Notes under the pieces: generated by a model | Database searches by the model: none | The model's input: the letters and a program-made list of their open reading frames with translations, nothing else | Told to the model about the DNA's origin: nothing | IMG/VR virus record: IMGVR_UViG_2935054407_000002 | Location: 37,578 to 101,577 of that record | DNA length: 64,000 nucleotides | Reading direction: 5' to 3' (one strand) | Source: a virus | Taxonomy: Duplodnaviria > Heunggongvirae > Uroviricota > Caudoviricetes | In this document: piece by piece, positions 562 to 64,000 of the stretch | Numbering within the stretch: the first letter of the stretch is position 1 | How the letters are laid out: every line of letters starts with the position of its first letter | Translations under genes and position numbers: made by a program

Positions 562-1572
562 TCAGAGCCTTGCGAGAGCGCGGAGACGGCCCCGCTGGGC
601 AGCGAGAGCCTCGATGGCGTCACACCAGCGGGTGAGGTCTTCGGCAGGGTCGAGTTCTGCTGCTCGCGCGATAGCCCGCTTGGAGGCGGCGCCGTAGGCG
701 CGAGGAGCGAGGAGACGCCGGATTTCCTTCTCCCACCCGTCGAGGTCATTGCGATCAACGAACACGCCTGCGTCGCCGAGGGACTCCTGAAGGCCCGGCG
801 TGGGGTGCGCGATGACCGGGATACCGGACACCATGCCCTCCACCCCCACCCGACCCCACGACTCGTAATCGGATGGCATGAGCAGGAGTTTCGTGCGGGC
901 ATACACCTCGTCCCGCATCCGATCGCCGGGCAAGTTCGACAGCACTTCGACGTTCGGTAGGTCGCGAATGTCCTGGTCGCCGTAACCGCCGGTCACCGCG
1001 AGGAATTCCACGTCGGGCATGCGTTCCGCGAGCCGCCAGAACGTCTCCGAGCCCTTCGGCTTGAACAAGTTGATCAATGTGACGCGGTCGCCATGCTTGG
1101 TCCGGTACTCGTCGGCCAGCACCGGCGGATGAATCACGACCGAGTTCGGGCGTGGAGTGTTTACCGAGTTCAGCCACGTCTCGAAATCGGTGCGCATCCA
1201 CTGCGAGTTGTAGACCGCGAGCGAGCACGGCCCCTTTCGGAGCCAGTTCTTCGTCTGCGGGAACGTGTTGTGCAGCACATGCACCACCGGGATGCCGCGC
1301 ATCTGGCCGATCATCGACGCACGCTGGGTGTTCTCCAGGTGTGTGATGATCGCGTCCGCCCGGTCGGTGTAATCGAACGGATCGTGCTTGCTACGGAACG
1401 GGTGAACCCGCACCCCGTCCAGCTCATACGAGCCGCCGGCCACCGGGTTGGACAGGACCACGTCCACCTCGTGGTCGCGCTCTACCAGAGCGCGCAGCAT
1501 CGTGTGGACCATCCACTCCGCCCCAGCATTGTGCGCTGGCGGGTAGGCATGAAGCATCGCCATCAGGCGCAC
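562..1572 (-). CDS. GT-B fold glycosyltransferase (GT4/GT1-like) inside the head module
   Basis: C-terminal E-x7-E-like motif (DYESWGRVGVEGMVSGIPVIA). Overall GT4 retaining-transferase pattern. Confidence 0.75.
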   Translation of the reverse strand: MRLMAMLHAYPPAHNAGAEWMVHTMLRALVERDHEVDVVLSNPVAGGSYELDGVRVHPFRSKHDPFDYTDRADAIITHLENTQRASMIGQMRGIPVVHVLHNTFPQTKNWLRKGPCSLAVYNSQWMRTDFETWLNSVNTPRPNSVVIHPPVLADEYRTKHGDRVTLINLFKPKGSETFWRLAERMPDVEFLAVTGGYGDQDIRDLPNVEVLSNLPGDRMRDEVYARTKLLLMPSDYESWGRVGVEGMVSGIPVIAHPTPGLQESLGDAGVFVDRNDLDGWEKEIRRLLAPRAYGAASKRAIARAAELDPAEDLTRWCDAIEALAAQRGRLRALARL

Positions 1573-9724: not shown

Positions 9725-9865
9725 TTAGGAACCCTGTTGTGGGGTCTTCTTGCGCTTCTTCGGCGAGGTCAGGAAGTTGCGTATGGCTCGGTTGGCCATA
9801 GCTGCCTGGCCTGCTTTGTCTGTGGGGATCAGGTCGGTGGAGCCCCAGGAGAATCGGTCAGCCAT
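9725..9865 (-). CDS. Small basic ORF (46 aa)
   Basis: ATG overlaps the ART gene stop (TGATG). Lys-rich C-terminus. Confidence 0.25.
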   Translation of the reverse strand: MADRFSWGSTDLIPTDKAGQAAMANRAIRNFLTSPKKRKKTPQQGS

Positions 9866-10671
9866 CAGAGCATCAGCTCCATGTGGACGTGCGGGACGCC
9901 TTTTCTGGTGGTCACGGAGACGACGCGGAACTTACTCCCTGGGGGGAGGACCATTTCGCGGTTGGATCCTGCAGCGGCTTTGGTTCCCTTGGGGAGGGTG
10001 ATTTCGGCGGTGGCTTGCCTGGTGGCTCGGCCTACGGATCCAACGTCGTTGGTGAGGCTGGTGGAGACGAAGCCCTTGTCGGAGAGTTCCTGACCTGGCT
10101 TGAGCTCGCCGAACTGGTCAGCGGAGAAGCCCCGGTAGACGGTCATGGGTTCCGTCAGCGGTGGGGCTTTCTTGATCGCCGAGTTGAGGTCTTTGCTGGC
10201 TTTGCGTGCCCGGTCGAGGTCGGCGTCGTTGAAGCTGACGTCGGCCTTGATGTCCTTGGAATTCAGTCCTCTGAGCTGGCCGTTCATCAGAGCGAACCCT
10301 GGTGACTGGTAGAACCGCATGGCCTTGTCCTGGGCAGGGCTGAGGCTGTTGCGCCAGGATCCGTAGTGGTCGTCGAGGAACTTCTTGTCCCGGGGGGCAG
10401 CCTTGGTGGTTCCTGCTGAGGGAGGGGTTTTCGCGGCGGGCTTCGCGGCGGGGGCCTTGGCGGCGCTCGGTTTGGGTGAGGCGACCGCTTGGGCGGTGCG
10501 CTTCACCGGCGGGGAGGCGGCGCCACGTCCGCTGTTCGCCTTCTTGGTGGAGGGCGTCTCAGCGGTCTTGGTTGTGGCTGGCTTGCGGCCGTGGTTCTTC
10601 TCAACGGTCGCCGCTGGTGTGAGAGGAACCCACCCATGCTTCCACTGCTGACCCGGGTAAGGGTGAGGCAT
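9865..10671 (-). CDS. ADP-ribosyltransferase (R-S-E clade toxin-like domain). N-terminal leader motif and Ala/Lys/Pro-rich linker.
   Basis: Aromatic-R (TVYRG), STS (GFVSTSL) and ARTT-loop-like GSNREMVLPPGSKFRVV motifs. N-terminus PGQQWKHGWVPLTPAA is shared with the upstream gene. Confidence 0.7.
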   Translation of the reverse strand: MPHPYPGQQWKHGWVPLTPAATVEKNHGRKPATTKTAETPSTKKANSGRGAASPPVKRTAQAVASPKPSAAKAPAAKPAAKTPPSAGTTKAAPRDKKFLDDHYGSWRNSLSPAQDKAMRFYQSPGFALMNGQLRGLNSKDIKADVSFNDADLDRARKASKDLNSAIKKAPPLTEPMTVYRGFSADQFGELKPGQELSDKGFVSTSLTNDVGSVGRATRQATAEITLPKGTKAAAGSNREMVLPPGSKFRVVSVTTRKGVPHVHMELML

Positions 10672-10813
10672 AGCGTCCCTCGCTTTCATGCACGAGTGGG
10701 CGCCATGCGAGGCGTCCGGCTGATTCGGGTTAAGGGAGGAGGTTCACTTTCGGCCAGCGGCTGCGCAGATCGCGTCGTCAGCCTTGCGGGAGTCGACTCC
10801 GCCCTTCGCGCCC

Positions 10814-13927: not shown

Positions 13928-14629
13928 TTACGGGTGGGCGCTGGAGGCGAGCACGCTTGGGTTGTGCTCCGCGACGAGAGGGCGGACCGCTTCGGGGTCG
14001 CCTTCGGCTTCAACGTAGCGGCCCATGAGCGCCATGTTCGCCTGGTAGAGCAGGCTGGATGGGTCGATTTCGCTGGGGTGCCAGAGGTGGAAGATCGTGC
14101 CCTCATGCTTGGCAGTCGGGCCGAGAAGCGCATCACAGGCAACCCTCGCGGCCGTGTCCTCGGCGCCCCAACCTTGGAACCGCTCGTCCATTCCGCCAGC
14201 CTGCCACCATGCGGAAGGTTGGATTACCAGAATGCCGCCGGTGGACCAGTCGGTTTCGAGCTCGGTCGCGCACAGGTAGGCGGGAGTCCCTGCGAGGTAG
14301 GCGTCCGTTCCCTGTGGGGAGAGTCCGCGGAAGTGCGTGTAGGGCAGGTGAAGGAGTCCGTCGTGGGCGCTCTCGACCGCCGCGAGGAGCGGTTCCCGCT
14401 CGGGCAGCGTGTCTGCGTCGCACAGGACGACCACGTCAGCGCCAACGTCCTGGGCGAGGCGAACACCGTGGTTGCGTGACCCCGCGCGGGAAAACGGTGT
14501 GTGGCCTGAGTCTGCGTCGATGTGCCACGCATCCGGCAGCAGGGTTCGCAGGTGGGCGCGCACCGTTTCGTGGTGGCGCTCCCGATCCGGCTGGCCGCCA
14601 CGCCAGGGGATTACGACTGCGACGCGCAC
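13928..14629 (-). CDS. GT-A fold glycosyltransferase (GT2-like)
   Basis: VVIPWRG...CDAD (DxD) motif. Confidence 0.65.
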   Translation of the reverse strand: MRVAVVIPWRGGQPDRERHHETVRAHLRTLLPDAWHIDADSGHTPFSRAGSRNHGVRLAQDVGADVVVLCDADTLPEREPLLAAVESAHDGLLHLPYTHFRGLSPQGTDAYLAGTPAYLCATELETDWSTGGILVIQPSAWWQAGGMDERFQGWGAEDTAARVACDALLGPTAKHEGTIFHLWHPSEIDPSSLLYQANMALMGRYVEAEGDPEAVRPLVAEHNPSVLASSAHP

Positions 14630-14639
14630 ATGACCTCCC

Positions 14640-15224
14640 TCAGGTCTTGCGGAACACAGCCCATGGGCGCTCCGGCTCGATGCGCTTCAGGCCGCGCTTC
14701 TCCGCTTCGGCCTTCTGCGCGTCGGGGTGCCAGGTGGTGACGTCGATCCAGATCTGAGCCTCTTCGGGGTTGTCCGAGGTGGGCCAGTCCACGACGATGA
14801 GTCCGCCCTTGCGGACGGCCTTGACGAGCCCGTCGAGGATGGCCAAGGCCGAAGATCGCGGGTGGTGGATCAGCACCGCCAGGCACACCACGGCGTCTAC
14901 CTTGTGGCCGATCTGCTCGTACAGGTCACTGCCGTCGGAGAGGACCTGCGGCATGTCGGGGTCGTTCTCGGCGAGGTGGGCGAGCATCTTCGGCGAGGCA
15001 TCCGCGCCGGTCACGTCGAACCCGAGACGCTTCAGCGGGATCGCTACCCGGCCATCGCCACAGCCGAAGTCCACAACGCGTGAACCTGGCTTGAGGACCT
15101 CGGCGAGCTGCAGGGCGGCCTGTTCACCAGATGCCCAGTACGCCTCTTCGGAGACGCCGCGCGACGGGTGAATATGAGCGGGGCCTGCCTGGTCCCAGGC
15201 GTCGATGACCTCTTGGCCTGTCAT
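14640..15224 (-). CDS. Class I SAM-dependent methyltransferase
   Basis: Motif I VVDFGCGDGRVAIPL. ATGA overlap with the upstream dehydrogenase gene. Confidence 0.75.
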   Translation of the reverse strand: MTGQEVIDAWDQAGPAHIHPSRGVSEEAYWASGEQAALQLAEVLKPGSRVVDFGCGDGRVAIPLKRLGFDVTGADASPKMLAHLAENDPDMPQVLSDGSDLYEQIGHKVDAVVCLAVLIHHPRSSALAILDGLVKAVRKGGLIVVDWPTSDNPEEAQIWIDVTTWHPDAQKAEAEKRGLKRIEPERPWAVFRKT

Positions 15225-16471
15225 GACTTCCGTCCGATCCGAATCACCGTCACGCCCGTCTGGTCAGGCATGTAGCCATGCGGGTCCAGCACCACCGAAC
15301 CAGCAGGGAACGCGTAGTCCACGAACTGCGGGTGCTTGGTGCCGATCACGTACACGTGGGGCTTGTCGAGTGGGCGATGACGCTTCGGCTCCACGAACGG
15401 GTCGTAGAGCCCCACCTGGCGTTGCCGGTCACGCAGCTGGTGGGCGAGGAGACGCGCTGGCGAGCCCGCGGTGAGCGCGCTGCTGGGCTTGTATGCCTCA
15501 CCGAGAATGTAGATGTCGAGGCCGGTCTGATCTGCCCACCGCTCTGCGAGGTCAGCCAGCCACCCTGACTGTGCTTCTCGGGCGTAGGCCATCTGGCCGA
15601 GCAGGTCGTAGGACAGTTCCAGGCGTTGAGCGAGCCATGACATGGCGATCAGGTCGCGGGGGTGGCAGGCGCCGCCGTCTCCCATGCCGCCCCGCAGGTA
15701 CTTCGGGGAGATCACCCGCTCGGTCGCGAGGGACAGGGCGTCGATGACCTGGTCGCAGTCAGCGCCGGTCTTCTCGCAGATCTCCATGAGGGTGTTGCCG
15801 ATGACGACCTTCGCGGAGATGACTGTGTTGTACGCGACCTTGATCAGTTCAGCGGACTCGATGGACGTCTTGAACACCGGCCGGTCATGAAGTTGCCCGT
15901 ACACCTCGACCACAGGGGTCAGGTGTTCGGGCCGGTCGGCGCCCATGAGGACGAACTCCGGCTCCAAGAAGTCCGCGATCGTCGTCCCCATCGCGATGAA
16001 CAGCGGGCTGTACACGAGGGTGACGTGGGCGTTCAGCAAGCCCCGCAGGTGCTTGTTGCACGTACCCGGCAGCGCCGTGGACACCACAACGAGCGTGATC
16101 GCCTTGGCCTGCTGGGCAGCGGCCCGGCACACATCCCGAACCGCCTGGGTGAGGAACCCGTACTCGAAGTCTCGGCGATCGTAGGGGGCAGGCGCCTCGC
16201 CGCCGTAGGCAGGAGCGTGCGGCGTCTGCACCGCGACAAACACCACATCGGCGTGGGCAACGACCTCGGCCACCGTGTGAGCGAGCTTCAACGGGCCAGA
16301 GTCGATCAGGTCCGCGAATCCCTGCTCGCCCTGGTCCCCACCTTCGGAGAACATGCGCTCGACTCGGGCTCGGTCGATGTCGTAGCCGATGACGTCGTGG
16401 CCAGCGAGGTGGTGCAGCGCCATGGCGCAGGGGGCGCCCAACTTGCCGAGGCCAATCCAGCCGACGTTCAT
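15221..16471 (-). CDS. Nucleotide-sugar dehydrogenase (UDP-glucose/GDP-mannose 6-dehydrogenase family)
   Basis: N-terminal NAD-binding MNVGWIGLGKLG. Family-typical central and C-terminal domains. Confidence 0.8.
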   Translation of the reverse strand: MNVGWIGLGKLGAPCAMALHHLAGHDVIGYDIDRARVERMFSEGGDQGEQGFADLIDSGPLKLAHTVAEVVAHADVVFVAVQTPHAPAYGGEAPAPYDRRDFEYGFLTQAVRDVCRAAAQQAKAITLVVVSTALPGTCNKHLRGLLNAHVTLVYSPLFIAMGTTIADFLEPEFVLMGADRPEHLTPVVEVYGQLHDRPVFKTSIESAELIKVAYNTVISAKVVIGNTLMEICEKTGADCDQVIDALSLATERVISPKYLRGGMGDGGACHPRDLIAMSWLAQRLELSYDLLGQMAYAREAQSGWLADLAERWADQTGLDIYILGEAYKPSSALTAGSPARLLAHQLRDRQRQVGLYDPFVEPKRHRPLDKPHVYVIGTKHPQFVDYAFPAGSVVLDPHGYMPDQTGVTVIRIGRKS

Positions 16472-23732: not shown

Positions 23733-24107
23733 TCACTTCCAACCGTCTCCGGTGCGCGCCATATGCCACTGCCCGCCGTGGCGGGCAGGCTTGGCGCAGG
23801 TGAACGTCTCGCCATACCGGATGCCCTGATCGTTGCACGCTGTCTCGCCAGGTGAGGCGAACTGCATGAACCATTCGAGATGCCCCAGGTCAGTCAGGCA
23901 GCCGTCGTGGGTTTCGCAGCAGGCGCACATGTCGCACTCGCGGCAACCCCACCAGTGGCGAAGTATCTGCTCGGCCATCTCGGCCGTTAGACCGCCCATC
24001 CTGAACTCGACCAGGAATTCCACGGCTCTCACGAAAGAGAGAAGCCCGTTGGCGTGCGCTTCCTTGAGTGCTGCGGCTTGCTCGACCAGTGATGAGGCGG
24101 GCATCAC
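23733..24107 (-). CDS. Cys-rich hypothetical protein
   Basis: WWGCRECDMCACCETHDGC cluster. Confidence 0.45.
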   Translation of the reverse strand: MMPASSLVEQAAALKEAHANGLLSFVRAVEFLVEFRMGGLTAEMAEQILRHWWGCRECDMCACCETHDGCLTDLGHLEWFMQFASPGETACNDQGIRYGETFTCAKPARHGGQWHMARTGDGWK

Positions 24108-25003
24108 GGGCGGATCACCTCAGGGTCCAGCGTGCCGAACTCGCCGATCGCCTGATGGATCCGCTTCCATGCGTGGTCCACGCCCGGCGGGGTGATCCTC
24201 GCCCACGTGGTGAGTACCGTTCCGCGCGTGCGGGTCTTGACGTCCTTGGTGGCGTTCTCGCACCAGCCCGACTTGATTGCCGTGGCGGTGGCCTGCCCGT
24301 AGTCGCTTCTCCCCTTGGATCGGATGAGCATCCCGATCTGGCCGAGGAAGTCGAAGACGTGTTCCTGCTTGACCTTGATCTTGCGCGCGGTCGCCCACTG
24401 CTGAACCGTTCGGGCGAACATCTGGACCGTCATGGTCCCGTTCGCCGCAGCGTACGTCTCGGCGAGTTCGTGACCGGGCAGCAGTTCCTTGATCTTCTCG
24501 TCGCGCGCCGCGATCTGCCGCTTCTGGTCGGCAGCGATCTGCGCAAGCTGGGCGACGTGGTCAAGGTCTGTAGGGTCGAACTGCTTGGGCACCAGCCCGT
24601 AGGAGCCCGTCTTGCGGATCGCGGGCAGAACGTCGTGGGTGATCCACCGCTTGAATGCCTTCGCGCCGGGTGCTCGGCTAGCGATGGCGAGGTCGTAGAA
24701 GCCCGCCTCAGTCAGGAACCACATCACCGGATTGATGATTTTGTCCATGTTTAGGTTAGGGATGTCCGTTTCGCGGGCGTCGAGCTGGACGCGATCTCCG
24801 GCCTCCACGAGCGCGAGGGCGACGGACGGGTTCGAGTGGTCGAGCCCCCGGCATACGTCGGCGTGGCAGAAGAGCGGGTTCTCGGCGGTCCCGATGACTC
24901 GGATCTGCTGACCCGTCTCCGGGAAGGTGAAGATCTCCACCTCGGAACGGGCGCCCGACTGTGAGTCTTCCGGGTCGAACAAGCTACCGTTGTGCACTGT
25001 CAA
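24104..25003 (-). CDS. Antirepressor (Bro-N domain plus C-terminal KilA-C/ANT-like domain)
   Basis: N-terminal Bro-N pattern (FTFPETGQQIRVIGTAENPLFCHADVCRGLD...GFYDLAIASRAPGAKAFKRWITHDVLP). Confidence 0.7.
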   Translation of the reverse strand: MTVHNGSLFDPEDSQSGARSEVEIFTFPETGQQIRVIGTAENPLFCHADVCRGLDHSNPSVALALVEAGDRVQLDARETDIPNLNMDKIINPVMWFLTEAGFYDLAIASRAPGAKAFKRWITHDVLPAIRKTGSYGLVPKQFDPTDLDHVAQLAQIAADQKRQIAARDEKIKELLPGHELAETYAAANGTMTVQMFARTVQQWATARKIKVKQEHVFDFLGQIGMLIRSKGRSDYGQATATAIKSGWCENATKDVKTRTRGTVLTTWARITPPGVDHAWKRIHQAIGEFGTLDPEVIRP

Positions 25004-30250: not shown

Positions 30251-30806
30251 CGGCGGTTCCTCCTGCGGCTGTACAGCGCCTCTTGGGCGTCGGTGTTCGG
30301 CAGCCTACGAGCGGGGCCGATGGAGCGTCGTGCGCCCTCCGAAAGGCTCACGGCGAGGACGTCATCCGGCGGCGGAAGCACCGGCGCGTACAGGATCGGC
30401 GGAGCAGGCGGGTCACCGGGAGCGACGCCATCCGGCTCGGGTAGCCCAGCAACAGAAACCGTCTTCGCCAGCAGTTTCGGGTAGTCGAGGAGGTACGCCT
30501 GCTCGATCCTCGCCCGCATCTCGGTCTGAAAGTCCGGCTCCGAAGGTGCGGGGAGGCGTGACCCGGAATCCACGAGGAGGGCTTCCATGCTCGCCGCCCA
30601 ACCAAGCTGCAAGCTGCCGAGAGTTCGACTGAAGGCCCGACTGAGTTGCTCGAAGCACTCGATGAGCGGCGTCATGTCGAGCCTGAACTCGATCCGCAGT
30701 TCGGGCTCGGGTTCGTCTGGCGCCCACCTCATGGCGTCGTCGCTGACGTAGTAGTCGTCGAGGCAGGCGTCGATCGCGGCGAGGACGCCGTCGGGGTTGC
30801 TCACAT
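30247..30806 (-). CDS. Hypothetical protein
   Basis: Start MSNPDGVLAAIDACLDDYY... Confidence 0.45.
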
Positions 30807-31322
30807 CGCCTCCAGGGCGGCTTCTACGGTCGGGCAAGCACTGAGGTAGGAGCACTTGCCGCACAGCTCTACACAGCGGCACAGCTCCGTTTTAGCGTGG
30901 TTCGCGGCGTGCTGGAGGATCCCCCGAGCCGCACACCACAGATCATCCGCCATCATCGGTTGCCCGCAGAGGGTGACGCCGATGTAGGAGCCCGGCCCCG
31001 CCTCCCGAACGGCTCCGGACGTGTACCGTCCTCGGCGGGTCGTGGGCGGCTCCAGGTGCGGCGGCACAGCGGGGTCGCGGACGTGCAGCGTCCCGAACGC
31101 TGGCCCGTCGTCGGGGGCGAGGTGGTTCGTCGGCCCCATCCACAAGGTGCCCGCCGGCGGGTGCGCGGACCGTCGCAGCCAGTTGGTCATGGTCTGGGCT
31201 CGGGCCGCCGACACCTGCTCGTCGGCCTCCCGGCGGAGACGGTCCACCTCCACGCGCAGGAACAGCGCCTCGCGGCGAAGCGTCTCCTCGGACGCCTTGT
31301 CGAGCTGGGCGACGGTCAGCAT
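30801..31322 (-). CDS. Hypothetical protein with a C-terminal Cys cluster
   Basis: CRCVELCGKCSYLSACP. Confidence 0.5.
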   Translation of the reverse strand: MLTVAQLDKASEETLRREALFLRVEVDRLRREADEQVSAARAQTMTNWLRRSAHPPAGTLWMGPTNHLAPDDGPAFGTLHVRDPAVPPHLEPPTTRRGRYTSGAVREAGPGSYIGVTLCGQPMMADDLWCAARGILQHAANHAKTELCRCVELCGKCSYLSACPTVEAALEAM

Positions 31323-32128
31323 CGAATCTCCTCGGCGCTAACGCGGTTCAGGCTCGGCAGAGGCGGGATGATCTCGGCCAGCCATCCGTCAGGGGCCGCG
31401 GTGAAGTGCGGCGCCGCCTCCGAGACCCACCGGGAGCGGACAGCCCTGGTGGTTGTCTCCTCCTGGGTGCGCTTGTCCACGTACGTGATGTCCTCCTCCG
31501 CCGTGTGGCGGACACACACCCTGCCGCGCTTCACACCGGCCGGGTAGTCGTTCCAGTTGATGCCGTGCTCGGTCCACAGCATGTCCTGCATCTTCCCGGC
31601 GGAGACGCCGTTGAGCTGCTTGTGGGAGAACTTCGCCTGCGCCGCCATCGTGACGCTGTTGCGGACGCAGTCGCGTTGCCGCCACAGGAAGTAGTTCGCG
31701 ACTTCGACGGGGTCGGGGATGGTGAAGACGCGGGCGTCGAACGTGGCGTGGGCGTCGTCGTAGCTGATGCCGTAGACGCGATTGAACGCAACGGTGGCGG
31801 TGGACGCGGCGATCGAGGCGATCTTCTGCACGACCCCGCCGAACCACGGCTGCGTGCCGTGGGCGTCGAAGTCCGTCAGCAGGATCGAGCACTCATCCGA
31901 CTGGGTGAACGCAAACACGCTGCCGGACATCTCCGCGCACAGGGCTTCGGCGACGGCGTCCATGGCGGCGACCACGGCGAAGTCGTACGGCTTGTCCGCG
32001 TGCCTCAGGAGGCTGTGAAAGGCCCTGCCATCGACCCGGGCGACGGTGAACGTGCGGCGCGGCAGAACCATGCGGGTCGGCTGCTCATACGCCTTGATGC
32101 GGTCTCCGAGAGCCGTCTTGTCGGTCAT
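31316..32128 (-). CDS. Thg1-like protein (tRNA-His guanylyltransferase / 3'-5' polymerase family)
   Basis: Thg1 motifs TVARVDGRAFHSL (cf. VVRLDGRNFH), FTQSDECSILL (cf. GQSDEYSFVF), YFLWRQRDCVRNS (cf. YLSWRQADCHINN). Confidence 0.7.
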   Translation of the reverse strand: MTDKTALGDRIKAYEQPTRMVLPRRTFTVARVDGRAFHSLLRHADKPYDFAVVAAMDAVAEALCAEMSGSVFAFTQSDECSILLTDFDAHGTQPWFGGVVQKIASIAASTATVAFNRVYGISYDDAHATFDARVFTIPDPVEVANYFLWRQRDCVRNSVTMAAQAKFSHKQLNGVSAGKMQDMLWTEHGINWNDYPAGVKRGRVCVRHTAEEDITYVDKRTQEETTTRAVRSRWVSEAAPHFTAAPDGWLAEIIPPLPSLNRVSAEEIRC

Positions 32129-32207
32129 GTGATCTCTTCCAGGGGTGGGGGAGATGGGTTCAGTTTGCCTGTGCCGGCCCGTAGGAGGCGGGCCGACAAC
32201 GGCAGAG

Positions 32208-32507
32208 TTAGGGCGCCTCGTGGTTGCACGTGACGACGGGAACGTTCCCTGTGGCATCCAAGACGGCCCACGCCTCGTTGAGGGTGTCGAACTGGCCGAG
32301 CGGTTCGATGTCCAGGCCGAGACGGCGGTGCGCGGAGACGTCCTTGGTGTTCGGGTGCGTTTCGCGGTGCTCCGCCATCCACTCGTGCAGGTGGTGCTCG
32401 ACGATAGCCGGGCGGGGGCTCTCGCCGTCGGGGTGAGTTGCAACGCGGTACACGTGGGCGTGGTAGCCGTCTGACTCGCAGACACAGCGGGCAGAGGGGT
32501 CGTCCAT
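32208..32507 (-). CDS. His-rich hypothetical protein
   Basis: Start MDDPSARCVCESDGYHAHVY... Confidence 0.4.
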   Translation of the reverse strand: MDDPSARCVCESDGYHAHVYRVATHPDGESPRPAIVEHHLHEWMAEHRETHPNTKDVSAHRRLGLDIEPLGQFDTLNEAWAVLDATGNVPVVTCNHEAP

Positions 32508-35170: not shown

Positions 35171-35686
35171 TCACTGTCGGGACGTACCGTCTTCGCCTAC
35201 ACTCATCCCATGGACCACCCCACCGAGCGCCGCCCTGTCGCCGTCAGCGACGTCGCCACCCTCCTCGGCGTCAGCGTCCACACCGTCAACCAGTGGCGAA
35301 AACGAGCCGCTTCCGCCACGAGGGTCGAGCCCTTCCCTCCCCCCGTCGGCAAGGTCGCCGGAGTCGACTACTGGTGGAACGACCAGATCAGCGAGTGGGC
35401 CCGACGGACCGGACGAATCAAGGACGAGCCCGCCAGCGAGTAGGTCTCCCTGCCCCTCGACGGACCCGCCGGCCCGCGCGGGAATCCACAGGCGAGCCGG
35501 CGTGATGATGCCGAGGATCTCCGCGCAGTCGTCGCCGAAGCCGAGCTCACGCGACTCGCGGCGGGTCAACGGTTGGTGGCACCTGCCGCACAGAACCTCA
35601 CGCCGTGCGACAGGAGACTCCTCGGCGGGGAACAGGCTCACCGGGGCTCCGGTAGGGCAGAGCGGAGACGAGCCGGGAGATGGCAC
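35171..35686 (-). CDS. Zinc-ribbon protein (LCGRCH...GFGDDCAEILG motif) whose C-terminal part is antisense to the HTH gene
   Basis: N-terminal 80 aa carry a phage-typical C-x2-C...G-x-G-x-x-C motif. There is no in-frame stop until 35171. Confidence 0.4.
   Translation of the reverse strand: MPSPGSSPLCPTGAPVSLFPAEESPVARREVLCGRCHQPLTRRESRELGFGDDCAEILGIITPARLWIPARAGGSVEGQGDLLAGGLVLDSSGPSGPLADLVVPPVVDSGDLADGGREGLDPRGGSGSFSPLVDGVDADAEEGGDVADGDRAALGGVVHGMSVGEDGTSRQ
35209..35443 (+). CDS. HTH DNA-binding protein (excisionase/MerR-like HTH_17)
   Basis: VSDVATLLGVSVHTVNQWRKR...PPVGKVAGVDYWWNDQISEWA. Confidence 0.55.
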
Positions 35687-37404: not shown

Positions 37405-37680
37405 TCAGAGTGCGCGGTGAGGTCGAGCAGCGCGAGCAGCAGCCGTGATCGACTCCGCATCGTCAGCGGACAGGTACACCTCGACGACCGAGGCGTCTCG
37501 GATGCTGGCCAGCGCCACGAGGGTGGTGTCATCGGCGTGACTGTTGGCGTTCTCAGCTGCGGTGATGAAGCGGCGGGAGTCTTGCCACCGGATGGTGACG
37601 GTGGTGACGGCGCCGGTTCGGAAGTCGATGATCGTGAGCTTGTCGAGGTCGTTCAGATCGAGTGCGGCGGTCACGTCGAG
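37405..37680 (-). CDS. Hypothetical protein
   Basis: Start MDVTAALDLNDLDKL... Confidence 0.4.
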   Translation of the reverse strand, partial: LDVTAALDLNDLDKLTIIDFRTGAVTTVTIRWQDSRRFITAAENANSHADDTTLVALASIRDASVVEVYLSADDAESITAAARAARPHRAL

Positions 37681-39174: not shown

Positions 39175-40557
39175 TCAGACGGCGCGGAGATGTCCGCCGG
39201 GGGCGGGCGGGTTCTGGCCTGGCGTGTTGGGTGCCATGTCGACGAAGCGGCTGTAGTGGAGCTGGCTTGCGACGGTGATCGTGGCGCGGGGCCCGTTGCG
39301 GTTCTTGGCGACGATCAGGTCGGCCTCGCCGGCCCGCGCACAGGTGGGTTCGTAGTAGTCGTCGCGGTGAAGGAGGATCACGATGTCGCTGTCCTGCTCA
39401 ATGGCGCCGCTTTCGCGCAGGTCAGAGGCGACGGGTCTCTTGTCGGCGCGCTTCTCGGACTCGCGGCTGAGCTGAGACAGCAGCATGATCGGCACCCGGA
39501 ACTCCATCGCGAGGAGCTTCATCCCGCGGGTGAGAGCGGCGATCTCCTGCTCTCGGCTGGCGGCCTTCGGTGCTGTCAACAGCTGCAGGTAGTCGACGAC
39601 GACCATGCCGATCGGGCCGGTTCGCAGGAGCGTTCGCAGGACCGAGCGGATTCGCTCCAGGGAGCATCCCGGCTGGTCGTCGATCGAAAGCGGGGCGCCG
39701 GACACGCGGGCCGCGGTTTGTGAGAGCCGCGCAAGCTGTTCGCCGGTGACGTCGTAGTCACGGATCGCCTTCAGCGACACCTTCGCCTCGGCCGAGGAGA
39801 TCCGCTGCAGCACCTCGCGGCGAGACATCTCCAGGGTGAACATCACGACGCGCTGGTTGTCCCGCAGAGCCGCAGAGCGGACCACGTCAACGGCGAACGT
39901 TGACTTACCCACCGAAGGGCGAGCGCCCACCACGATGAGCTGACCCGCCTGAAATGACGTGACGAGCGACGCCAAGTCAACGTACGGCGGGACGATCCCC
40001 TCTGCCTTCGGCGGCGGGTTCTCCAGGTCGTTCAGCAGGTCGATCATGTCTTGGGAGACGTCCTGCGGCTGATCGCCGAGTCGGTGGGCGGCGGCGTCGT
40101 CGACTAGCTTGCGGATCATGTCGACGTCGGCTTCCGGATCCCAGCCCGCGTTCTCCGTCATCTGGAGACTGCGGCGAAGCGCCGTGTTGATCCGGCGGCG
40201 GAGTCCATCGTTGGCGACCCGCCGGGCGTGGTACGACAGCGAGCCGGCCGCGGCGGCGTGCTCCATCAGCGTCGCCAGGTACGGGCCTCCGCCGACGCGA
40301 TCGGTATCGCCGCGGGCATGCAGTTCGCCGAACACGGAGGCGGGGTCGATGGGCTTGCCCGCGTGCAGCAGCGACAGTGCCGCGGCGAACACCGCGCCAG
40401 CGGCGGAGAAGAAGTCGTCGACGGCCAGCAGGTCAGCGGCTTCGCCCATCGCTTCCTTCGACTGGATCACCGCGCCGGCCACCGCGACCTCTGCGGCGAT
40501 GACCGCGTCGCTGGGGGCCCAGCCGTCGAAGCTGCTCAGGTCGATTTCTGCGGTCAC
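39175..40557 (-). CDS. dnaB: Replicative DNA helicase DnaB
   Basis: Walker A GARPSVGKST, Walker B VVVDYLQL. N-terminal DnaB domain. Confidence 0.85.
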   Translation of the reverse strand: MTAEIDLSSFDGWAPSDAVIAAEVAVAGAVIQSKEAMGEAADLLAVDDFFSAAGAVFAAALSLLHAGKPIDPASVFGELHARGDTDRVGGGPYLATLMEHAAAAGSLSYHARRVANDGLRRRINTALRRSLQMTENAGWDPEADVDMIRKLVDDAAAHRLGDQPQDVSQDMIDLLNDLENPPPKAEGIVPPYVDLASLVTSFQAGQLIVVGARPSVGKSTFAVDVVRSAALRDNQRVVMFTLEMSRREVLQRISSAEAKVSLKAIRDYDVTGEQLARLSQTAARVSGAPLSIDDQPGCSLERIRSVLRTLLRTGPIGMVVVDYLQLLTAPKAASREQEIAALTRGMKLLAMEFRVPIMLLSQLSRESEKRADKRPVASDLRESGAIEQDSDIVILLHRDDYYEPTCARAGEADLIVAKNRNGPRATITVASQLHYSRFVDMAPNTPGQNPPAPGGHLRAV

Positions 40558-41156
40558 TTCGACCTCCGCCGGTCCGCGCCGATCATCTTCACTACGTGGG
40601 CGCCGTCCTGGATGCGGGAAGAGACCCGCTCGCCGAGGAGGTCGCGCAGTTTCGGGTTGTTGGAGGCGACCAGCGTGGGCCTCTGGAAAGCCCAGCGGGT
40701 GTCGAGCAGCCCCATGAGGTGGTCGGCGTCCCAGTCGGAGACGCGAATGGATCCGAGATCATCGAGCGCGAGGATGTCGACCGTCGCCAGGTCGTTGAAC
40801 GCGACATCGTTCACGGGCGGGGTGAGGAGCTGCTTCAGGTCGTATCCGGTCTTGATCTCCATGCCGCCGCGAAACCCGGCCTTGATGAGGGTTTCTTTGA
40901 TCTTCCACAGGGACCAGGACTTGCCGACGCCGACGTTGCCGATCAGCAGCATCCCGGCCGCATCGTGGGCGAGGAACCTGCGGACCCACGTCGTGATCTC
41001 CGGCAGCAGCTCACCATCGGCGGCGAACACCGCCGGGCGCTCGGCGTAGAAGTGCTTCAGCCGGAACTGAACCTGCTCTTCCAGCCAGGACGCGCTGGCC
41101 TCAGCGCGAGCGGCCTCGTAGTCGTAGTCGTCCGGGTCGGACTCGTTGAGGTTCAT
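40554..41156 (-). CDS. DnaC/IstB-like helicase loader ATPase
   Basis: Walker A LLIGNVGVGKSW, Walker B ILALDDLG. ATGA overlap with dnaB. Confidence 0.75.
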   Translation of the reverse strand: MNLNESDPDDYDYEAARAEASASWLEEQVQFRLKHFYAERPAVFAADGELLPEITTWVRRFLAHDAAGMLLIGNVGVGKSWSLWKIKETLIKAGFRGGMEIKTGYDLKQLLTPPVNDVAFNDLATVDILALDDLGSIRVSDWDADHLMGLLDTRWAFQRPTLVASNNPKLRDLLGERVSSRIQDGAHVVKMIGADRRRSK

Positions 41157-56210: not shown

Positions 56211-56572
56211 AGCTGGCCTCCGGCGAGCTGCATCTCCGCGCGGGCGGTGGACTGGATTGTGCGACCAACGTCGATGCGGGCGTGGAGAGCCCGCAGGTGC
56301 TCCTTCTGGAGCCGAACCGCTGCGGCGGCCTTGCCGTGGATGCGCCATAGGTGATCGGTCTGAGTGATCGCGATCTGCTTGCGGTCTTCGATCGACCCCT
56401 CAGCGGCGCGAAACGCTCCGGCGAACGCCACCTTGAAGTCGCCCTCAGCCTCGACCGCGATGAACTCCAGGTCGGCCATCTTCGTGACGGCGTCATCAAG
56501 GTCGCGGGAGAGCTGGCCAAGCTGCTTGATGATCGTGAGCATCTCCGTCACGCCGAACCGCCCTTGACCCAC
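56207..56572 (-). CDS. Hypothetical protein
   Basis: 121 aa ORF coupled to its neighbours. Confidence 0.45.
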   Translation of the reverse strand: MGQGRFGVTEMLTIIKQLGQLSRDLDDAVTKMADLEFIAVEAEGDFKVAFAGAFRAAEGSIEDRKQIAITQTDHLWRIHGKAAAAVRLQKEHLRALHARIDVGRTIQSTARAEMQLAGGQL

Positions 56573-57495
56573 GGGTCCTCAGGCAGAGGGCCGCGCTCGG
56601 CGATTTGCGGGTTGGAAGTGACGTCCTTGACGAGCTTGTTGTGGGCGCTCTTCTCCGAACCGGTCATCGTGCCGACCTCGGCGAGCTGCTCGTCGGTCAC
56701 CTGACGGCGGGCGATCGTGCCGTCCTGGTTCCGCGGCAGCCCATCCGCCGGCCCGTTCAGGATCTTCTGTCGCTCCTGCACCAACGTCATGAGCCGGTTC
56801 GCGGTCTCGCTGTTGATGCGCCGGGTCTGCATCGCCTCGGTCACGTCCCGGCGGAAGCCGGCCACGGTGTCAAGGCTGCTCTCGGCCAGGCGCTTCTCGA
56901 ATACGTCGACCCAGTCGGTGTCCACGACGATCTGCGCCTGCGCCGCCTGATGCTTCGGCGCCGCACGCTGCCCAGGATCAGCAACCGGGTTCTCCGCCGC
57001 AGGGTTGTCCCGGTCGCCCTTCTGCCACTGCGCCAGCGCCACACCGAACCGCTGGGCGGCGTTCCTCAGAGCGTCACCGATGAGGACCTTGACCGCGTCG
57101 TGTTGGTTCGAGGGCACCGAGCCGTAGCCGGGCCGGGTGACGCCGCACACGGTGAGGCGGATCCACATGCCGACCGGGTTGCCGTACTTGTCGGTGTCCA
57201 GTGCCGGCAGGCCGGTCTCGTCCAGCGCGAACGGCTCCCACGACCAGTACGGATCTACCTTCAGCAGCCGCGCGGTCACGTCTGCGTGGCCGACGTAGTC
57301 GATGTGGATGTGCTTGGTGGAGACGTACGCCTTGCAGATCTCGCACTTCTGCTTGACGTGCCCTGCCTTGGTGCAGTTCTTGTTCTTGTCGGAGCAGTCG
57401 GAACACGTGACCCTCGGCAGTAGGCCGATCTGGTCCGCGTTGAACGGCTCCATCAGCTTGAGCAGGGATTCCCGCTCAAGGTCGGTCGTGGTCAC
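56548..57495 (-). CDS. Rad52/Sak-like single-strand annealing protein (putative)
   Basis: N-terminal Cys pairs and YVGHADVTARLLKVDPYWSWE...GNPVGMWIRLTVCGVTRPGYG resemble phage Rad52-family recombinases. Confidence 0.5.
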   Translation of the reverse strand: MTTTDLERESLLKLMEPFNADQIGLLPRVTCSDCSDKNKNCTKAGHVKQKCEICKAYVSTKHIHIDYVGHADVTARLLKVDPYWSWEPFALDETGLPALDTDKYGNPVGMWIRLTVCGVTRPGYGSVPSNQHDAVKVLIGDALRNAAQRFGVALAQWQKGDRDNPAAENPVADPGQRAAPKHQAAQAQIVVDTDWVDVFEKRLAESSLDTVAGFRRDVTEAMQTRRINSETANRLMTLVQERQKILNGPADGLPRNQDGTIARRQVTDEQLAEVGTMTGSEKSAHNKLVKDVTSNPQIAERGPLPEDPWVKGGSA

Positions 57496-62149: not shown

Positions 62150-63643
62150 TCAAGCATGGGAGCGAACCACCACGTCAACTGACTCCTCGTCCGGAATATT
62201 CTTCCGCCCCGGCCCGACCGGCATGATCGCGATCTTCTCAAACAGCCACACCAGCAACTCCCGTTTCTGAGGCAACTCCAGTGCATCCCACGCAGCAGGA
62301 ACAGCTTCCGGGCTGACCATAACGAGACTCGCAACATGCGCAGGGAAATGAATTCTTTTCATTTTCTGCTCAGCCGCTTCGATCTCCGCCGTCAAAACAC
62401 CCTCTACGCGAGCCAAGCCCGTAGCCGACAACTTCCCCTGAGCGGCCTGCACATAGAACTCCTCCAGCCGCGCACGCTTCTCCTCCACCTCCGCAAGCAC
62501 ACCCCCCACCTCATCACCCACGTCGCCCGTCACCGCTAGAGCCGCCAAGGTCGGCCTCGACATCAAAAGCGCTACAGCCAGCGACTCCACATACGTATCC
62601 ACCCGCTCCTTGTGCCGGCCCACATGGAACGACTTCTCCTTGACGGGGTACTTCCGCACGCACGAGTAGTAGTTGATGCCCCGCCTAAGCCGCGGCCGGC
62701 ACGGAGACCCGCAGACCCCACAGACCGCGATACCGCTGAGAAGGTGCCGGATCGCAGACGGGCGGGCTCCACCACGGGCCGGATCGGTGAGTTTCGCCAC
62801 GATCAGGTAGTAGGTGTGGTCGTCGAGGATGCGCGGGAACCACTGCTCAGTACTTTTGATTTTCACGCCGAGATGAACCCGGTACCCCACGTAGGAGGGG
62901 TTGATCACCAGCCGTTTGATCGGGGTCGACGTCCACTTCGCGCCGCGTGGTGACGGGGTCCCGCGGTCGTTGAGGATCCGCGCGATCGTGTTCAGCGGGG
63001 TCCCCTGCTTGATCATGTCCGCGATGTCGCGAATCACCGCAGCCTCGTCCTGGTCGATGTCCTGCCCGACCAGATCCCCAGTGTCCGGGTCATACCGCCG
63101 GCGGTAGCCGTACAGGCGGCGGCCGTGCGGAGCCCCTGCCGCAGCACGGGATCTCGTGGTGCGGCGAAGCCGTCCGCTGAGGCGCTCGGACTCGAACGCC
63201 GAATCAACGCCGTCATCAGCCAGGACCTTCCAGTCGCGGGCCCGCTGCATGTTGTACGTCCGGTCATGCGATGTCACATGAATCAGGACGCCCTGCTCAC
63301 GGCACGTCTGCAGCAGGCTCATCCACTCGACGGGCTTGCGGTCGCCGCGGGAGCTCTCCCACAGGACGAGGACGTCGAAGGTGCCGGCTTCGAGCTGGGC
63401 GAGGAGGCGGTCCCATTCGGGGCGGCCCTTGCGGGCGAAGCGTGAGGCGGAACGGTCCAGTTCTGCGAAGACCTCTTTGATGTGCCAGCCGTTCTCGCGG
63501 CAGGCGTCGGTGTTCGCGGTGTTCTGCTCTGGAACGGATCTTGTTTCAGCTGATCTCTGACCAGCCTTGATCTTGCTGACGCGGCCGTAGATCGCGGCCT
63601 GTAGGGCGTCGTCCGGGGCGGGGCGGCGAGAGGCGGGGGGCAT
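62150..63643 (-). CDS. Large serine recombinase (integrase)
   Basis: Resolvase-type N-terminus with AAIYGRVS (catalytic Ser). Recombinase domain and Cys-rich zinc ribbon (CGVCGSPC...YYSC). Confidence 0.85.
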   Translation of the reverse strand: MPPASRRPAPDDALQAAIYGRVSKIKAGQRSAETRSVPEQNTANTDACRENGWHIKEVFAELDRSASRFARKGRPEWDRLLAQLEAGTFDVLVLWESSRGDRKPVEWMSLLQTCREQGVLIHVTSHDRTYNMQRARDWKVLADDGVDSAFESERLSGRLRRTTRSRAAAGAPHGRRLYGYRRRYDPDTGDLVGQDIDQDEAAVIRDIADMIKQGTPLNTIARILNDRGTPSPRGAKWTSTPIKRLVINPSYVGYRVHLGVKIKSTEQWFPRILDDHTYYLIVAKLTDPARGGARPSAIRHLLSGIAVCGVCGSPCRPRLRRGINYYSCVRKYPVKEKSFHVGRHKERVDTYVESLAVALLMSRPTLAALAVTGDVGDEVGGVLAEVEEKRARLEEFYVQAAQGKLSATGLARVEGVLTAEIEAAEQKMKRIHFPAHVASLVMVSPEAVPAAWDALELPQKRELLVWLFEKIAIMPVGPGRKNIPDEESVDVVVRSHA

Positions 63644-63700
63644 GCACTCACGGTAGAACGAAAGCAGTGCCTAAGCGACTGTTTCCTTGGAGACCACGGA
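63644..63700. other. Prophage/host junction (attR-type site of the serine integrase)
   Basis: Homology between the host lipoprotein gene and the phage paralog breaks at ...GTGGTC(TCC/AGC)AAGGA. The host ORF ends ...VVSKETVA* at 63671. Confidence 0.45.
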
Positions 63701-64000
63701 CAGCGGCTTGGACTCGGCGTCGTCGGCCCCGGAGAAGTCGAAGGTCCGCTGGCCGAACGGGTAGGAGAAGCCCCGGTCGCCGGGGCCGAGCAGCGTGGCG
63801 CCGCTGGAGGGGTTGATGCACTTCTCGAACTTGATGGCCTCGAACGTGCCGCCGGCGTAGTGCAGGACGACCTCGTCGGGCTGGGTGCTCACCCGGGAGC
63901 ACGAGCTGAGGAGGAACGCGGAGATCACCAGCAGGACGACCACGAGGATCGACCCCTTCAGCAGCGGCCTCCGGTTGCCCGCGGCCTTCTGAGCACTCAT
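63671..64000 (-). pseudogene. Host lipoprotein gene truncated at its 3' end by prophage insertion
   Basis: N-terminal signal peptide and lipobox (LLSSC). 109 aa instead of about 277. Ends where the phage paralog continues. Confidence 0.55.

Follow-up and report, generated by a model that had tools for sequence, protein, structure and literature searches.

The window analysed here is a stretch of 64,000 nucleotides belonging to the IMG/VR virus record IMGVR_UViG_2935054407_000002 (positions 37,578 to 101,577 of that record), and the gene under study encodes a bacterial-type Thg1-like protein (TLP) carried by an integrated temperate prophage, which probably serves in the repair of host tRNAs. 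The Thg1 family and its occurrence in phages have already been catalogued, and the exact protein of 270 amino acids is found in NCBI as 'tRNA(His) guanylyltransferase Thg1 family protein [Streptosporangium sp. NPDC050855]', on contig JBITFY010000010.1 (315 kb). Because the protein is thus already correctly labelled at the family level in public records, its identification adds nothing new. The added value is modest and resides in the temperate context devoid of tRNA genes, in the mobility of this actinobacterial clade between phages and chromosomes, and in the sporadic occurrence of PNKP and Ro60 partners.

The gene and the protein it encodes

The coding sequence is read from the minus strand, a point left unstated in an earlier description based on the letters of the stretch (the sequence-only reading), which gave its coordinates and its length exactly. 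The gene and the regions of its product are distributed as follows:

31316..32128, minus strand: TLP coding sequence, 270 amino acids plus stop (ATG 32128-32126, TGA 31318-31316)
31715..32104, minus strand: catalytic palm-like Thg1 domain, residues 9-138 (PF04446), which holds E15, R31, D33, K46, S77, D78, E79, K102 and R133
31448..31702, minus strand: Thg1 C-terminal domain, residues 143-227 (PF14413), with the WRQRDCVRNS segment (R150, D153, N157, S158)
31349..31447, minus strand: clade-specific conserved C-terminal tail, residues 228-260, in which R231, W234, A239, P240 and P255 are invariant

A longer stop-to-stop frame, with a GTG at 32485, was discarded as the gene start: the public annotation calls the 270-amino-acid product, and the stop of an upstream gene, read in a different frame, is at 32208.

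Judged from the profile comparisons, the match of the protein to the Thg1 family is far beyond chance. The search against Pfam Thg1 (PF04446) suggested in the sequence-only reading yields 86.5 bits for a cutoff of 29.2 (E 1.9e-24) over profile positions 2-130 of 130, Pfam Thg1C (PF14413) yields 35.4 bits for a cutoff of 26.3, and residues 4-238 align with profile positions 2-223 of 250 of PHROG 4717 (tRNA-His guanylyltransferase) at 9.2e-75; NCBIfam contains no model for the 270-amino-acid protein. The three motifs on which the family had been recognized are all present, i.e., VARVDGRAFH at residues 29-38, SDECS at residues 77-81 and WRQRDC at residues 149-154, and the alternative letters proposed along with them correspond, in the sequence alignment to the solved structures, to those of human THG1 (vvvrLdgrNfh, sdeYs, wrqAdc).

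With respect to the solved structures, the TLP of Bacillus thuringiensis (BtTLP; 4KGK/4KGM; Hyde et al. 2013, PMC3701042) is the nearest both by sequence and by fold. The sequence alignment with 4KGK (4.6e-52) is free of gaps over residues 6-126, and the next structures by sequence are the eukaryotic Thg1 enzymes (7.5e-16 at best, in a range that extends to ~1e-9) and the archaeal TLP 5AXK (7e-9). In BtTLP, the conserved carboxylates D30, D75 and E76 correspond to D29, D76 and E77 of hTHG1, and E12, R28, R131 and R147 are responsible for the positioning of the nucleoside triphosphate (NTP) (PMC3701042). Owing to a constant offset of +3, residues D30, D75, E76, E12 and R28 of BtTLP, for which binding of metal or NTP has been demonstrated, become D33, D78, E79, E15 and R31 in the prophage protein, whose R133 and R150 align with the later BtTLP arginines. 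The residues E15, R31, D33, S77, D78, E79, K102, R133, R150, D153, N157 and S158 are invariant in 42/42 clade relatives, so that none of the catalytic Asp/Glu residues D33, D78 and E79 is missing, just as the profile search did not lead to an unrelated family; position 46 is occupied by Lys in 26 of these relatives and by Arg in the other 16. BtTLP is a chromosomal protein of 245 amino acids, whereas the prophage-borne protein is longer and possesses the conserved clade-specific tail, which extends past both the Pfam Thg1C match (ending at residue 227) and the BtTLP sequence alignment (ending at residue 211).

The segment that follows WRQxDC is of particular interest, since the sequence HINNLYN at this place is the marker of the eukaryotic-type Thg1. 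This segment reads WRQRDCVRNSVTM in the prophage protein and WRQQDASKNSISM in BtTLP, versus ...DCHINNLYN in the human and Candida enzymes; in the alignment, wrqrdcvrnsvtm of the former faces wrqqdasknsism of BtTLP and dchinnlyn of the eukaryotic enzymes. The HINNLYN motif is accordingly absent from the C-terminal domain when the motif segment is aligned to the structures, a feature that the protein shares with BtTLP.

The AlphaFold model, a monomer built on 42 relatives, reaches a predicted local distance difference test score (pLDDT) of 88.6 and a predicted template modelling score (pTM) of 0.85; the members of the Thg1/TLP superfamily are homotetramers organized as a dimer of dimers. A polymerase-palm-like Thg1 fold is predicted, and the 32 top matches of the model in a Foldseek comparison with the PDB are all Thg1 or TLP structures. 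The best ones are the BtTLP chains (E 1e-24, target TM score 0.85-0.91), with 34-40% identity in the structural alignments of the predicted model, followed by the human, Candida and yeast Thg1 and the Methanosarcina TLP. The model shows a long β-hairpin at residues 203-238, and its pLDDT amounts to 93-96 for residues 201-250, 85 for residues 251-260 and 55 for residues 261-270, so that the greater part of the clade-specific tail is predicted with high confidence.

By its sequence and its predicted fold, the protein is an intact bacterial-type TLP, closer to the characterised TLPs than to the eukaryotic Thg1. Because HINNLYN is absent and the eukaryotic similarity is weak, it is not filed as a true tRNA-His guanylyltransferase, and its sequence features indicate that it is not a bona fide G-1-adding enzyme of this type despite its name in the databases. 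The family membership advanced in the sequence-only reading holds by PF04446/PF14413, PHROG 4717 and 4KGK, with the amendment that the protein belongs to the bacterial TLPs and not to the G-1-adding Thg1.

The prophage around the gene

The window is an integrated temperate siphovirus-like prophage of Streptosporangium sp. NPDC050855, with a guanine plus cytosine (GC) content of 66% and nearly all genes on the minus strand. Its integrated state is apparent from the host genes that occur just past the integrase. In transcription order, the genes are arranged as follows:

62150-63643, minus strand: large serine integrase, followed by helix-turn-helix regulators and a Bro-N protein
56548-57495, minus strand: single-strand annealing protein, followed by two WhiB genes and endonuclease VII
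39175-41156, minus strand: DnaC-like loader and DnaB helicase, after which comes a series of small open reading frames (ORFs) including the TLP gene
24104-25003, minus strand: DNA-binding protein and Bro-N/ANT anti-repressor, after the run of small ORFs that contains the TLP gene
after the anti-repressor: glycosylation cluster, ADP-ribosyltransferase-domain protein and HNH protein
last in transcription order: terminase, SPP1-type portal, capsid and tail genes

The phage origin assumed in the sequence-only reading is borne out by this set of genes, the serine integrase, single-strand annealing protein, DnaC-like loader, DnaB, anti-repressor, terminase, portal and capsid being all encoded on the strand of the TLP gene. 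The latter is located in the co-oriented block between the replication genes on one side and the anti-repressor and late genes on the other, for which the term 'early region', used in the same reading, is a fair description of its replication-side position.

The immediate surroundings of the gene comprise the following elements:

32134..32140, minus strand: Shine-Dalgarno-like GGAAGAG, 5 nt 5' of the TLP ATG, as read from the sequence
32166..32204, minus strand: strong GC-rich RNA hairpin without a U-tract, in the 79-nt gap between the stop of the upstream gene (32208) and the TLP start
30801..31322, minus strand: ORF of 173 amino acids directly 3' of the TLP gene, its ATG overlapping the TLP stop (ATGCTGA) with a 7-nt overlap

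The TLP gene thus has a predicted ribosome-binding site of its own. The 87-nt intergenic stretch with the hairpin folds at -34.2 kcal/mol (z = -4.4), a value that is equalled by 0/200 shuffles. The hairpin was not called in the terminator scan and could serve in RNA processing or stability or act as a factor-dependent terminator; more generally, the scan for sigma-70 promoters and intrinsic terminators detected no site flanking the TLP gene. The overlap between the TLP stop and the next ATG suggests that the 173-amino-acid ORF is probably translationally coupled to the TLP. The N-terminus of its product resembles a coiled coil, and the C-terminus is rich in Cys (C-x2-C-x5-C). Pfam, PHROG and PADLOC all gave no match for this product, and its gene is not kept beside the TLPs at other loci; its interpretation as a WhiB-like protein was abandoned, as Pfam at E<=0.5 gave nothing.

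In this prophage, the search for co-occurring tRNA or RNA-ligase genes, also suggested in the sequence-only reading, was negative. ARAGORN found 0 tRNAs in ~83 kb that comprise the entire window together with the host flank and 9.4 kb of tail genes, and no ligase domain occurs. At the gathering thresholds, the Rfam scan of the whole window gave 0 matches, Y RNA included, and no homolog of HAD_PNKP or TROVE/Ro60 is detectable in the window by similarity. The prophage therefore carries no multi-gene module devoted to tRNA repair or supplementation. The idea that the TLP is part of a defence system was abandoned, PADLOC giving 0 matches for the TLP and nine nearby proteins.

Some other features of the prophage deserve mention. 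Its edge corresponds to the high-coordinate end of the window (63671-64000 and L119:1-9973), and the host flank past the serine integrase encodes CheB/CheR, a histidine kinase and response regulator forming a two-component system, and an extracytoplasmic function (ECF)-type sigma factor. A 213-amino-acid protein with an ADP-ribosyltransferase exotoxin domain (PF03496; window 9865-10506, minus strand) is encoded just upstream of the HNH protein and the small and large terminase; it has no PADLOC match and is possibly a phage-borne toxin or a host-modifying enzyme. Glycosylation genes are located in or beside the structural module (window 562-1563 and 13928-16471, minus strand, and past position 1 at L121:11644-12618); they encode a UDP-glucose dehydrogenase, an S-adenosylmethionine methyltransferase, a GT2-like glycosyltransferase and two GT4 glycosyltransferases flanking capsid-proximal genes, and may serve in virion glycosylation or in the modification of the host envelope. 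An identical TLP with its neighbours also occurs on L002 (Logan SRR35531633 contig 396, 65,253 bp), assembled from an independent run that may derive from the same strain.

Relatives of the gene and their neighbours

Homologs of the protein occur in 160 deposited phage genomes, all less than 60% identical (~45% for the best one listed), and most of them are annotated as tRNA-His guanylyltransferase. Members of PHROG 4717, the family to which the protein belongs, include gp143 of Bacillus phage Bc431v3 and proteins of the Mycobacterium phages Pound and Kalah2, of Rhodococcus phage Weasels2 and of jumbo phages. When the surroundings of the gene (4 kb) were compared by megablast with 50,697 phage records, no match was obtained, which leaves the gene without a close cultured relative there. 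The relatives sharing 60-84% identity are all actinobacterial and are confined to prophages, IMG/VR contigs and actinobacterial chromosomes. The sets of relatives examined consist of 2,875 proteins at E<=1e-10, 65 loci in species-representative genomes and 45 IMG/VR contigs. Depending on their gene architecture, the high-GC loci were labelled phage-like (40) or chromosomal (29) with a heuristic calibrated on the window locus and three Pfam-annotated chromosomal loci.

In a neighbour-joining tree, the clusters track the host taxonomy (Streptosporangiales, Streptomycetaceae, Micromonosporaceae), phage-like and chromosomal copies being interleaved; bootstrap values are weak (32% for the grouping of the prophage protein with Nonomuraea, 43% for the Streptosporangiales cluster). 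The closest relatives, with 67-79% identity, occur in plain chromosomal settings of Nonomuraea, Actinomadura and Actinoallomurus. In Microbispora spp. the TLP gene occupies a syntenic chromosomal locus with 5-8 flanking genes in common, and in Nonomuraea spp. it is itself the only common gene, at a different locus in each species; one Nonomuraea island contains the phage-type families HAD_PNKP and DUF6011. The gene is therefore exchanged between chromosomes and temperate phages, possibly in either direction. A recent capture by the phage from Nonomuraea-like chromosomes was considered but not upheld in view of the 32% bootstrap, the synonymous divergence (dS) of 0.6-0.7 to the closest relatives, the shifting Nonomuraea loci and the phage-type genes of the island.

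The ratio of non-synonymous to synonymous substitution rates (dN/dS) ranges from 0.13 to 0.33 in 13/13 pairs, including 0.15-0.19 in phage-phage pairs, which indicates that the gene is maintained by purifying selection in phages. A prophage of Streptosporangium jomthongense (L072:9992-10870, NZ_JBHSBC010000056.1) contains a remnant of the gene, in which residues 1-37 and 243-267 persist in frame and residues 38-242 are replaced by a 223-amino-acid ORF (10117-10788) with LAGLIDADG-like motifs (FLAADG..., IIDGDG...). This ORF gives 20.6 bits with Pfam LAGLIDADG_3, just below the cutoff of 22.5, and from its sequence the insertion looks like a free-standing homing endonuclease that has displaced the TLP, rather than an intein.

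As regards the tRNA genes, 5 of the 37 related high-GC phage-like loci have 1-2 of them within 10 kb, and none of the 37 has a tRNA-His within that distance. Embedding of the gene in tRNA arrays is restricted to the most distant IMG/VR loci examined, L112 and L117 (31 and 11 genes, respectively), the array of the large phage L117 including a tRNA-His.

Partners related to RNA repair occur sporadically. In Nonomuraea spp., a 142-amino-acid phosphatase of the HAD_PNKP type (DIDGT motif) overlaps the stop of a 79% identical TLP at the following loci:

L122:8804-9232: HAD_PNKP phosphatase, Nonomuraea spp.
L123:8804-9232: HAD_PNKP phosphatase, Nonomuraea spp.
L008:10834-11232: HAD_PNKP phosphatase, Nonomuraea spp.

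There, the TLP, HAD_PNKP and DUF6011 genes form a three-gene islet among ordinary chromosomal genes; because DUF6011 is also called in the present prophage (on L002, at about window 35171-35641), the islet may be derived from a phage. Weaker HAD_PNKP homologs are found near the TLP at L027/L081, L028 and L103. A TROVE/Ro60-like protein (L124:11375-12961) is encoded on a phage contig arranged, like the window, as DnaB ... DUF4326 ... TLP, where its gene lies 2.5 kb 3' of a TLP with 74% identity, and TROVE/Ro60 homologs also occur near the TLP in the IMG/VR contigs L084, L092 and L097. These PNKP and Ro60 pairings point to a theme of RNA end-repair or quality control. As a separate observation, ORFs resembling hydrolases of the HIT (histidine triad, HxHxHxx) family, recognized by their motif, are located within 4 kb of the TLP at the phage-like loci L011, L051 and L075, e.g., L075:9589-10005, which ends at the TLP start. 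HIT enzymes can strip 5'-AMP from adenylylated nucleic-acid ends, which represent the intermediate of the TLP reaction.

Possible roles of the protein

The TLPs are two-metal-ion polymerases working in the 3'-5' direction (PMC3701042, PMC4820378, PMC6471195). In a first step, the 5'-monophosphate end of the RNA is activated with ATP or GTP to give a 5'-adenylylated intermediate; subsequently, the 3'-OH of an NTP that is Watson-Crick paired to the 3' strand of the acceptor stem attacks the activated phosphate, and such cycles rebuild the missing 5' nucleotides until the acceptor stem is complete (same references). For bacterial and archaeal TLPs, full-length tRNA-His is a less favoured substrate than 5'-truncated tRNAs, whatever the identity of the latter, and the addition by these TLPs is strictly templated by Watson-Crick pairing and independent of the anticodon, whereas Thg1 recognizes the GUG anticodon and then attaches one G-1 opposite A73 without a template (PMC6471195). 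From its model and sequence, the prophage protein should have in common with the eukaryotic Thg1 (human 3OTB, Candida 3WBZ, yeast 5XOX) the fold, the catalytic carboxylates and the two-step chemistry of activation and nucleotidyl transfer, but it differs by a similarity limited to E 1e-9 to 1e-16 and 21-25% identity, and by the HINNLYN motif, which it lacks and which the human and Candida enzymes contain. The complexes of the Methanosarcina acetivorans TLP with tRNA (5AXK-5AXN; Kimura et al. 2016, PMC4820378) belong to the same TLP class and offer a structural model for the templated addition to a 5'-truncated tRNA, although this archaeal protein is more distant from the prophage protein in sequence.

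Taking these properties into account, we consider it reasonably probable that the protein, a stand-alone, prophage-borne TLP of the bacterial type, repairs the 5' ends of host tRNAs by templated addition while the phage grows lytically, a role that we infer. Truncated or mis-processed 5' ends of host tRNAs would be restored, and the translation capacity would be kept up. As the prophage has no tRNA genes, any tRNA substrate must be derived from the host. The TLP would function as an accessory module on its own, which some related phages or islands may supplement with a 3'-phosphatase of the PNKP type or with the RNA quality-control protein Ro60. The concept of a phage enzyme that restores damaged host tRNA is shared with the Pnkp/Rnl pathway of phage T4, and a PNKP-type HAD phosphatase occurs beside the TLP in some relatives, but the T4 chemistry is different and consists of the healing and ligation of nicks in the anticodon loop by enzymes, a kinase and a ligase, that the prophage does not encode.

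Several points weigh against the repair of host tRNAs. According to the superfamily review (PMC6471195), bacterial TLPs still await the assignment of a biological substrate, model species included. According to recent papers, the bacterial immune effectors directed at tRNAs attack anticodon loops or arms, cut the 3' CCA tail or introduce modifications into the acceptor stem (MenT, CapRel); removal of 5' nucleotides from the acceptor strand is attributed to none of the bacterial nucleases and immune effectors described in the recent tRNA-immunity literature examined. The called genes of the prophage contain no Pfam domain of an RNA ligase, kinase, phosphatase or CCA-adding enzyme, and no neighbour of the TLP is conserved across the 40 phage-like loci, the best one recurring in 6. 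Furthermore, a wider function in RNA quality control is conceivable in view of the associations with Ro60 and PNKP, and the destruction of the gene in the S. jomthongense prophage shows that the TLP is dispensable there, at least for lysogeny.

This last observation would also fit the unlikely case of a cargo gene beneficial to the lysogen, or of a neutral passenger, which circulates between chromosomes and temperate phages and contributes to the housekeeping of host tRNAs, or to nothing, instead of phage replication. The plain chromosomal settings of the closest relatives, the syntenic locus kept in Microbispora, the mixture of phage and chromosomal copies in tree clusters that follow host taxonomy and the lack of a conserved partner gene all agree with such a status. 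However, the TLP gene is located within the co-oriented lytic block and overlaps the next gene, without the promoter and terminator signature of an independent moron; ~40 phage-like loci retain it under purifying selection, as measured in the phage-phage pairs, and all its catalytic residues are intact. It is quite unlikely, in turn, that the substrate is another structured RNA, e.g., a phage transcript, a Y-RNA-like or Ro60-bound RNA or a primer-like RNA, whose 5' end the TLP would extend or activate (App-/Gpp-RNA) for the purpose of RNA quality control and not of tRNA repair. The RNA specificity of TLPs is broad and for some eukaryotic ones, substrates other than tRNA have been proposed (PMC6471195), a likeness of the adenylylated intermediate to a capped end has been considered (PMC8131947), TROVE/Ro60 accompanies the TLP at four related loci (L124, L084, L092, L097), and the clade possesses its conserved extra tail. 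Yet the Ro60 association is sporadic, the window has neither a detectable Ro60 gene nor any Rfam family, and all bacterial and archaeal TLPs that have been characterised biochemically use tRNA acceptor stems (PMC6471195).

A maintenance of the tRNA-His identity, in which G-1 would be added opposite C73 to host tRNA-His deprived of the extra 5' G, in such a way that histidine decoding is kept up during the infection, appears very unlikely. Bacterial and archaeal TLPs perform this addition in vitro (PMC6471195), the public annotation is named after the G-1-adding activity, and the tRNA array of the distant phage L117 includes a tRNA-His. In bacteria, however, G-1 is encoded in the genome and retained by RNase P, which would make the activity redundant, and the characterised TLPs favour 5'-truncated tRNAs of any type (PMC6471195); moreover, the protein is devoid of the HINNLYN motif, and neither the prophage nor the vicinity of the gene in the 37 related loci provides a tRNA-His. 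Finally, the sequence-only reading had envisaged that the enzyme counters a tRNA-targeting defence of the host, a role that remains speculation because the tRNA immune effectors listed above are not described as removing nucleotides from the 5' strand. It is very unlikely, though worth stating as a conjecture, that the TLP of temperate actinophages, sometimes together with a PNKP-type phosphatase or Ro60, counters a yet-undescribed host response damaging the 5' strand of the tRNA acceptor stem or another structured RNA; if true, this would reveal both the long-sought physiological substrate of bacterial TLPs and, in Actinobacteria, a novel class of immunity or stress response directed at tRNAs.

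The phage literature retrieved on Thg1 amounts to mentions in genome annotations, no biochemical or genetic study of a phage TLP having been found, and phages are never mentioned in the 2019 review of the superfamily (PMC6471195). A survey of jumbo phages lists Thg1 among the phage RNA-repair genes (PMC7824862), and the authors of the Bc431v3 genome considered the gene as 'highly unusual' and possibly involved in the modification of phage or host tRNAs (PMC3601020). Bc431v3 has 20 tRNA genes (PMC3601020), in contrast to the temperate prophage described here, which has none. In this respect, a small temperate prophage with a TLP alone and without tRNA genes, residing in an inducible and culturable actinomycete, offers a clean genetic setting for the study of the role of a TLP in vivo.

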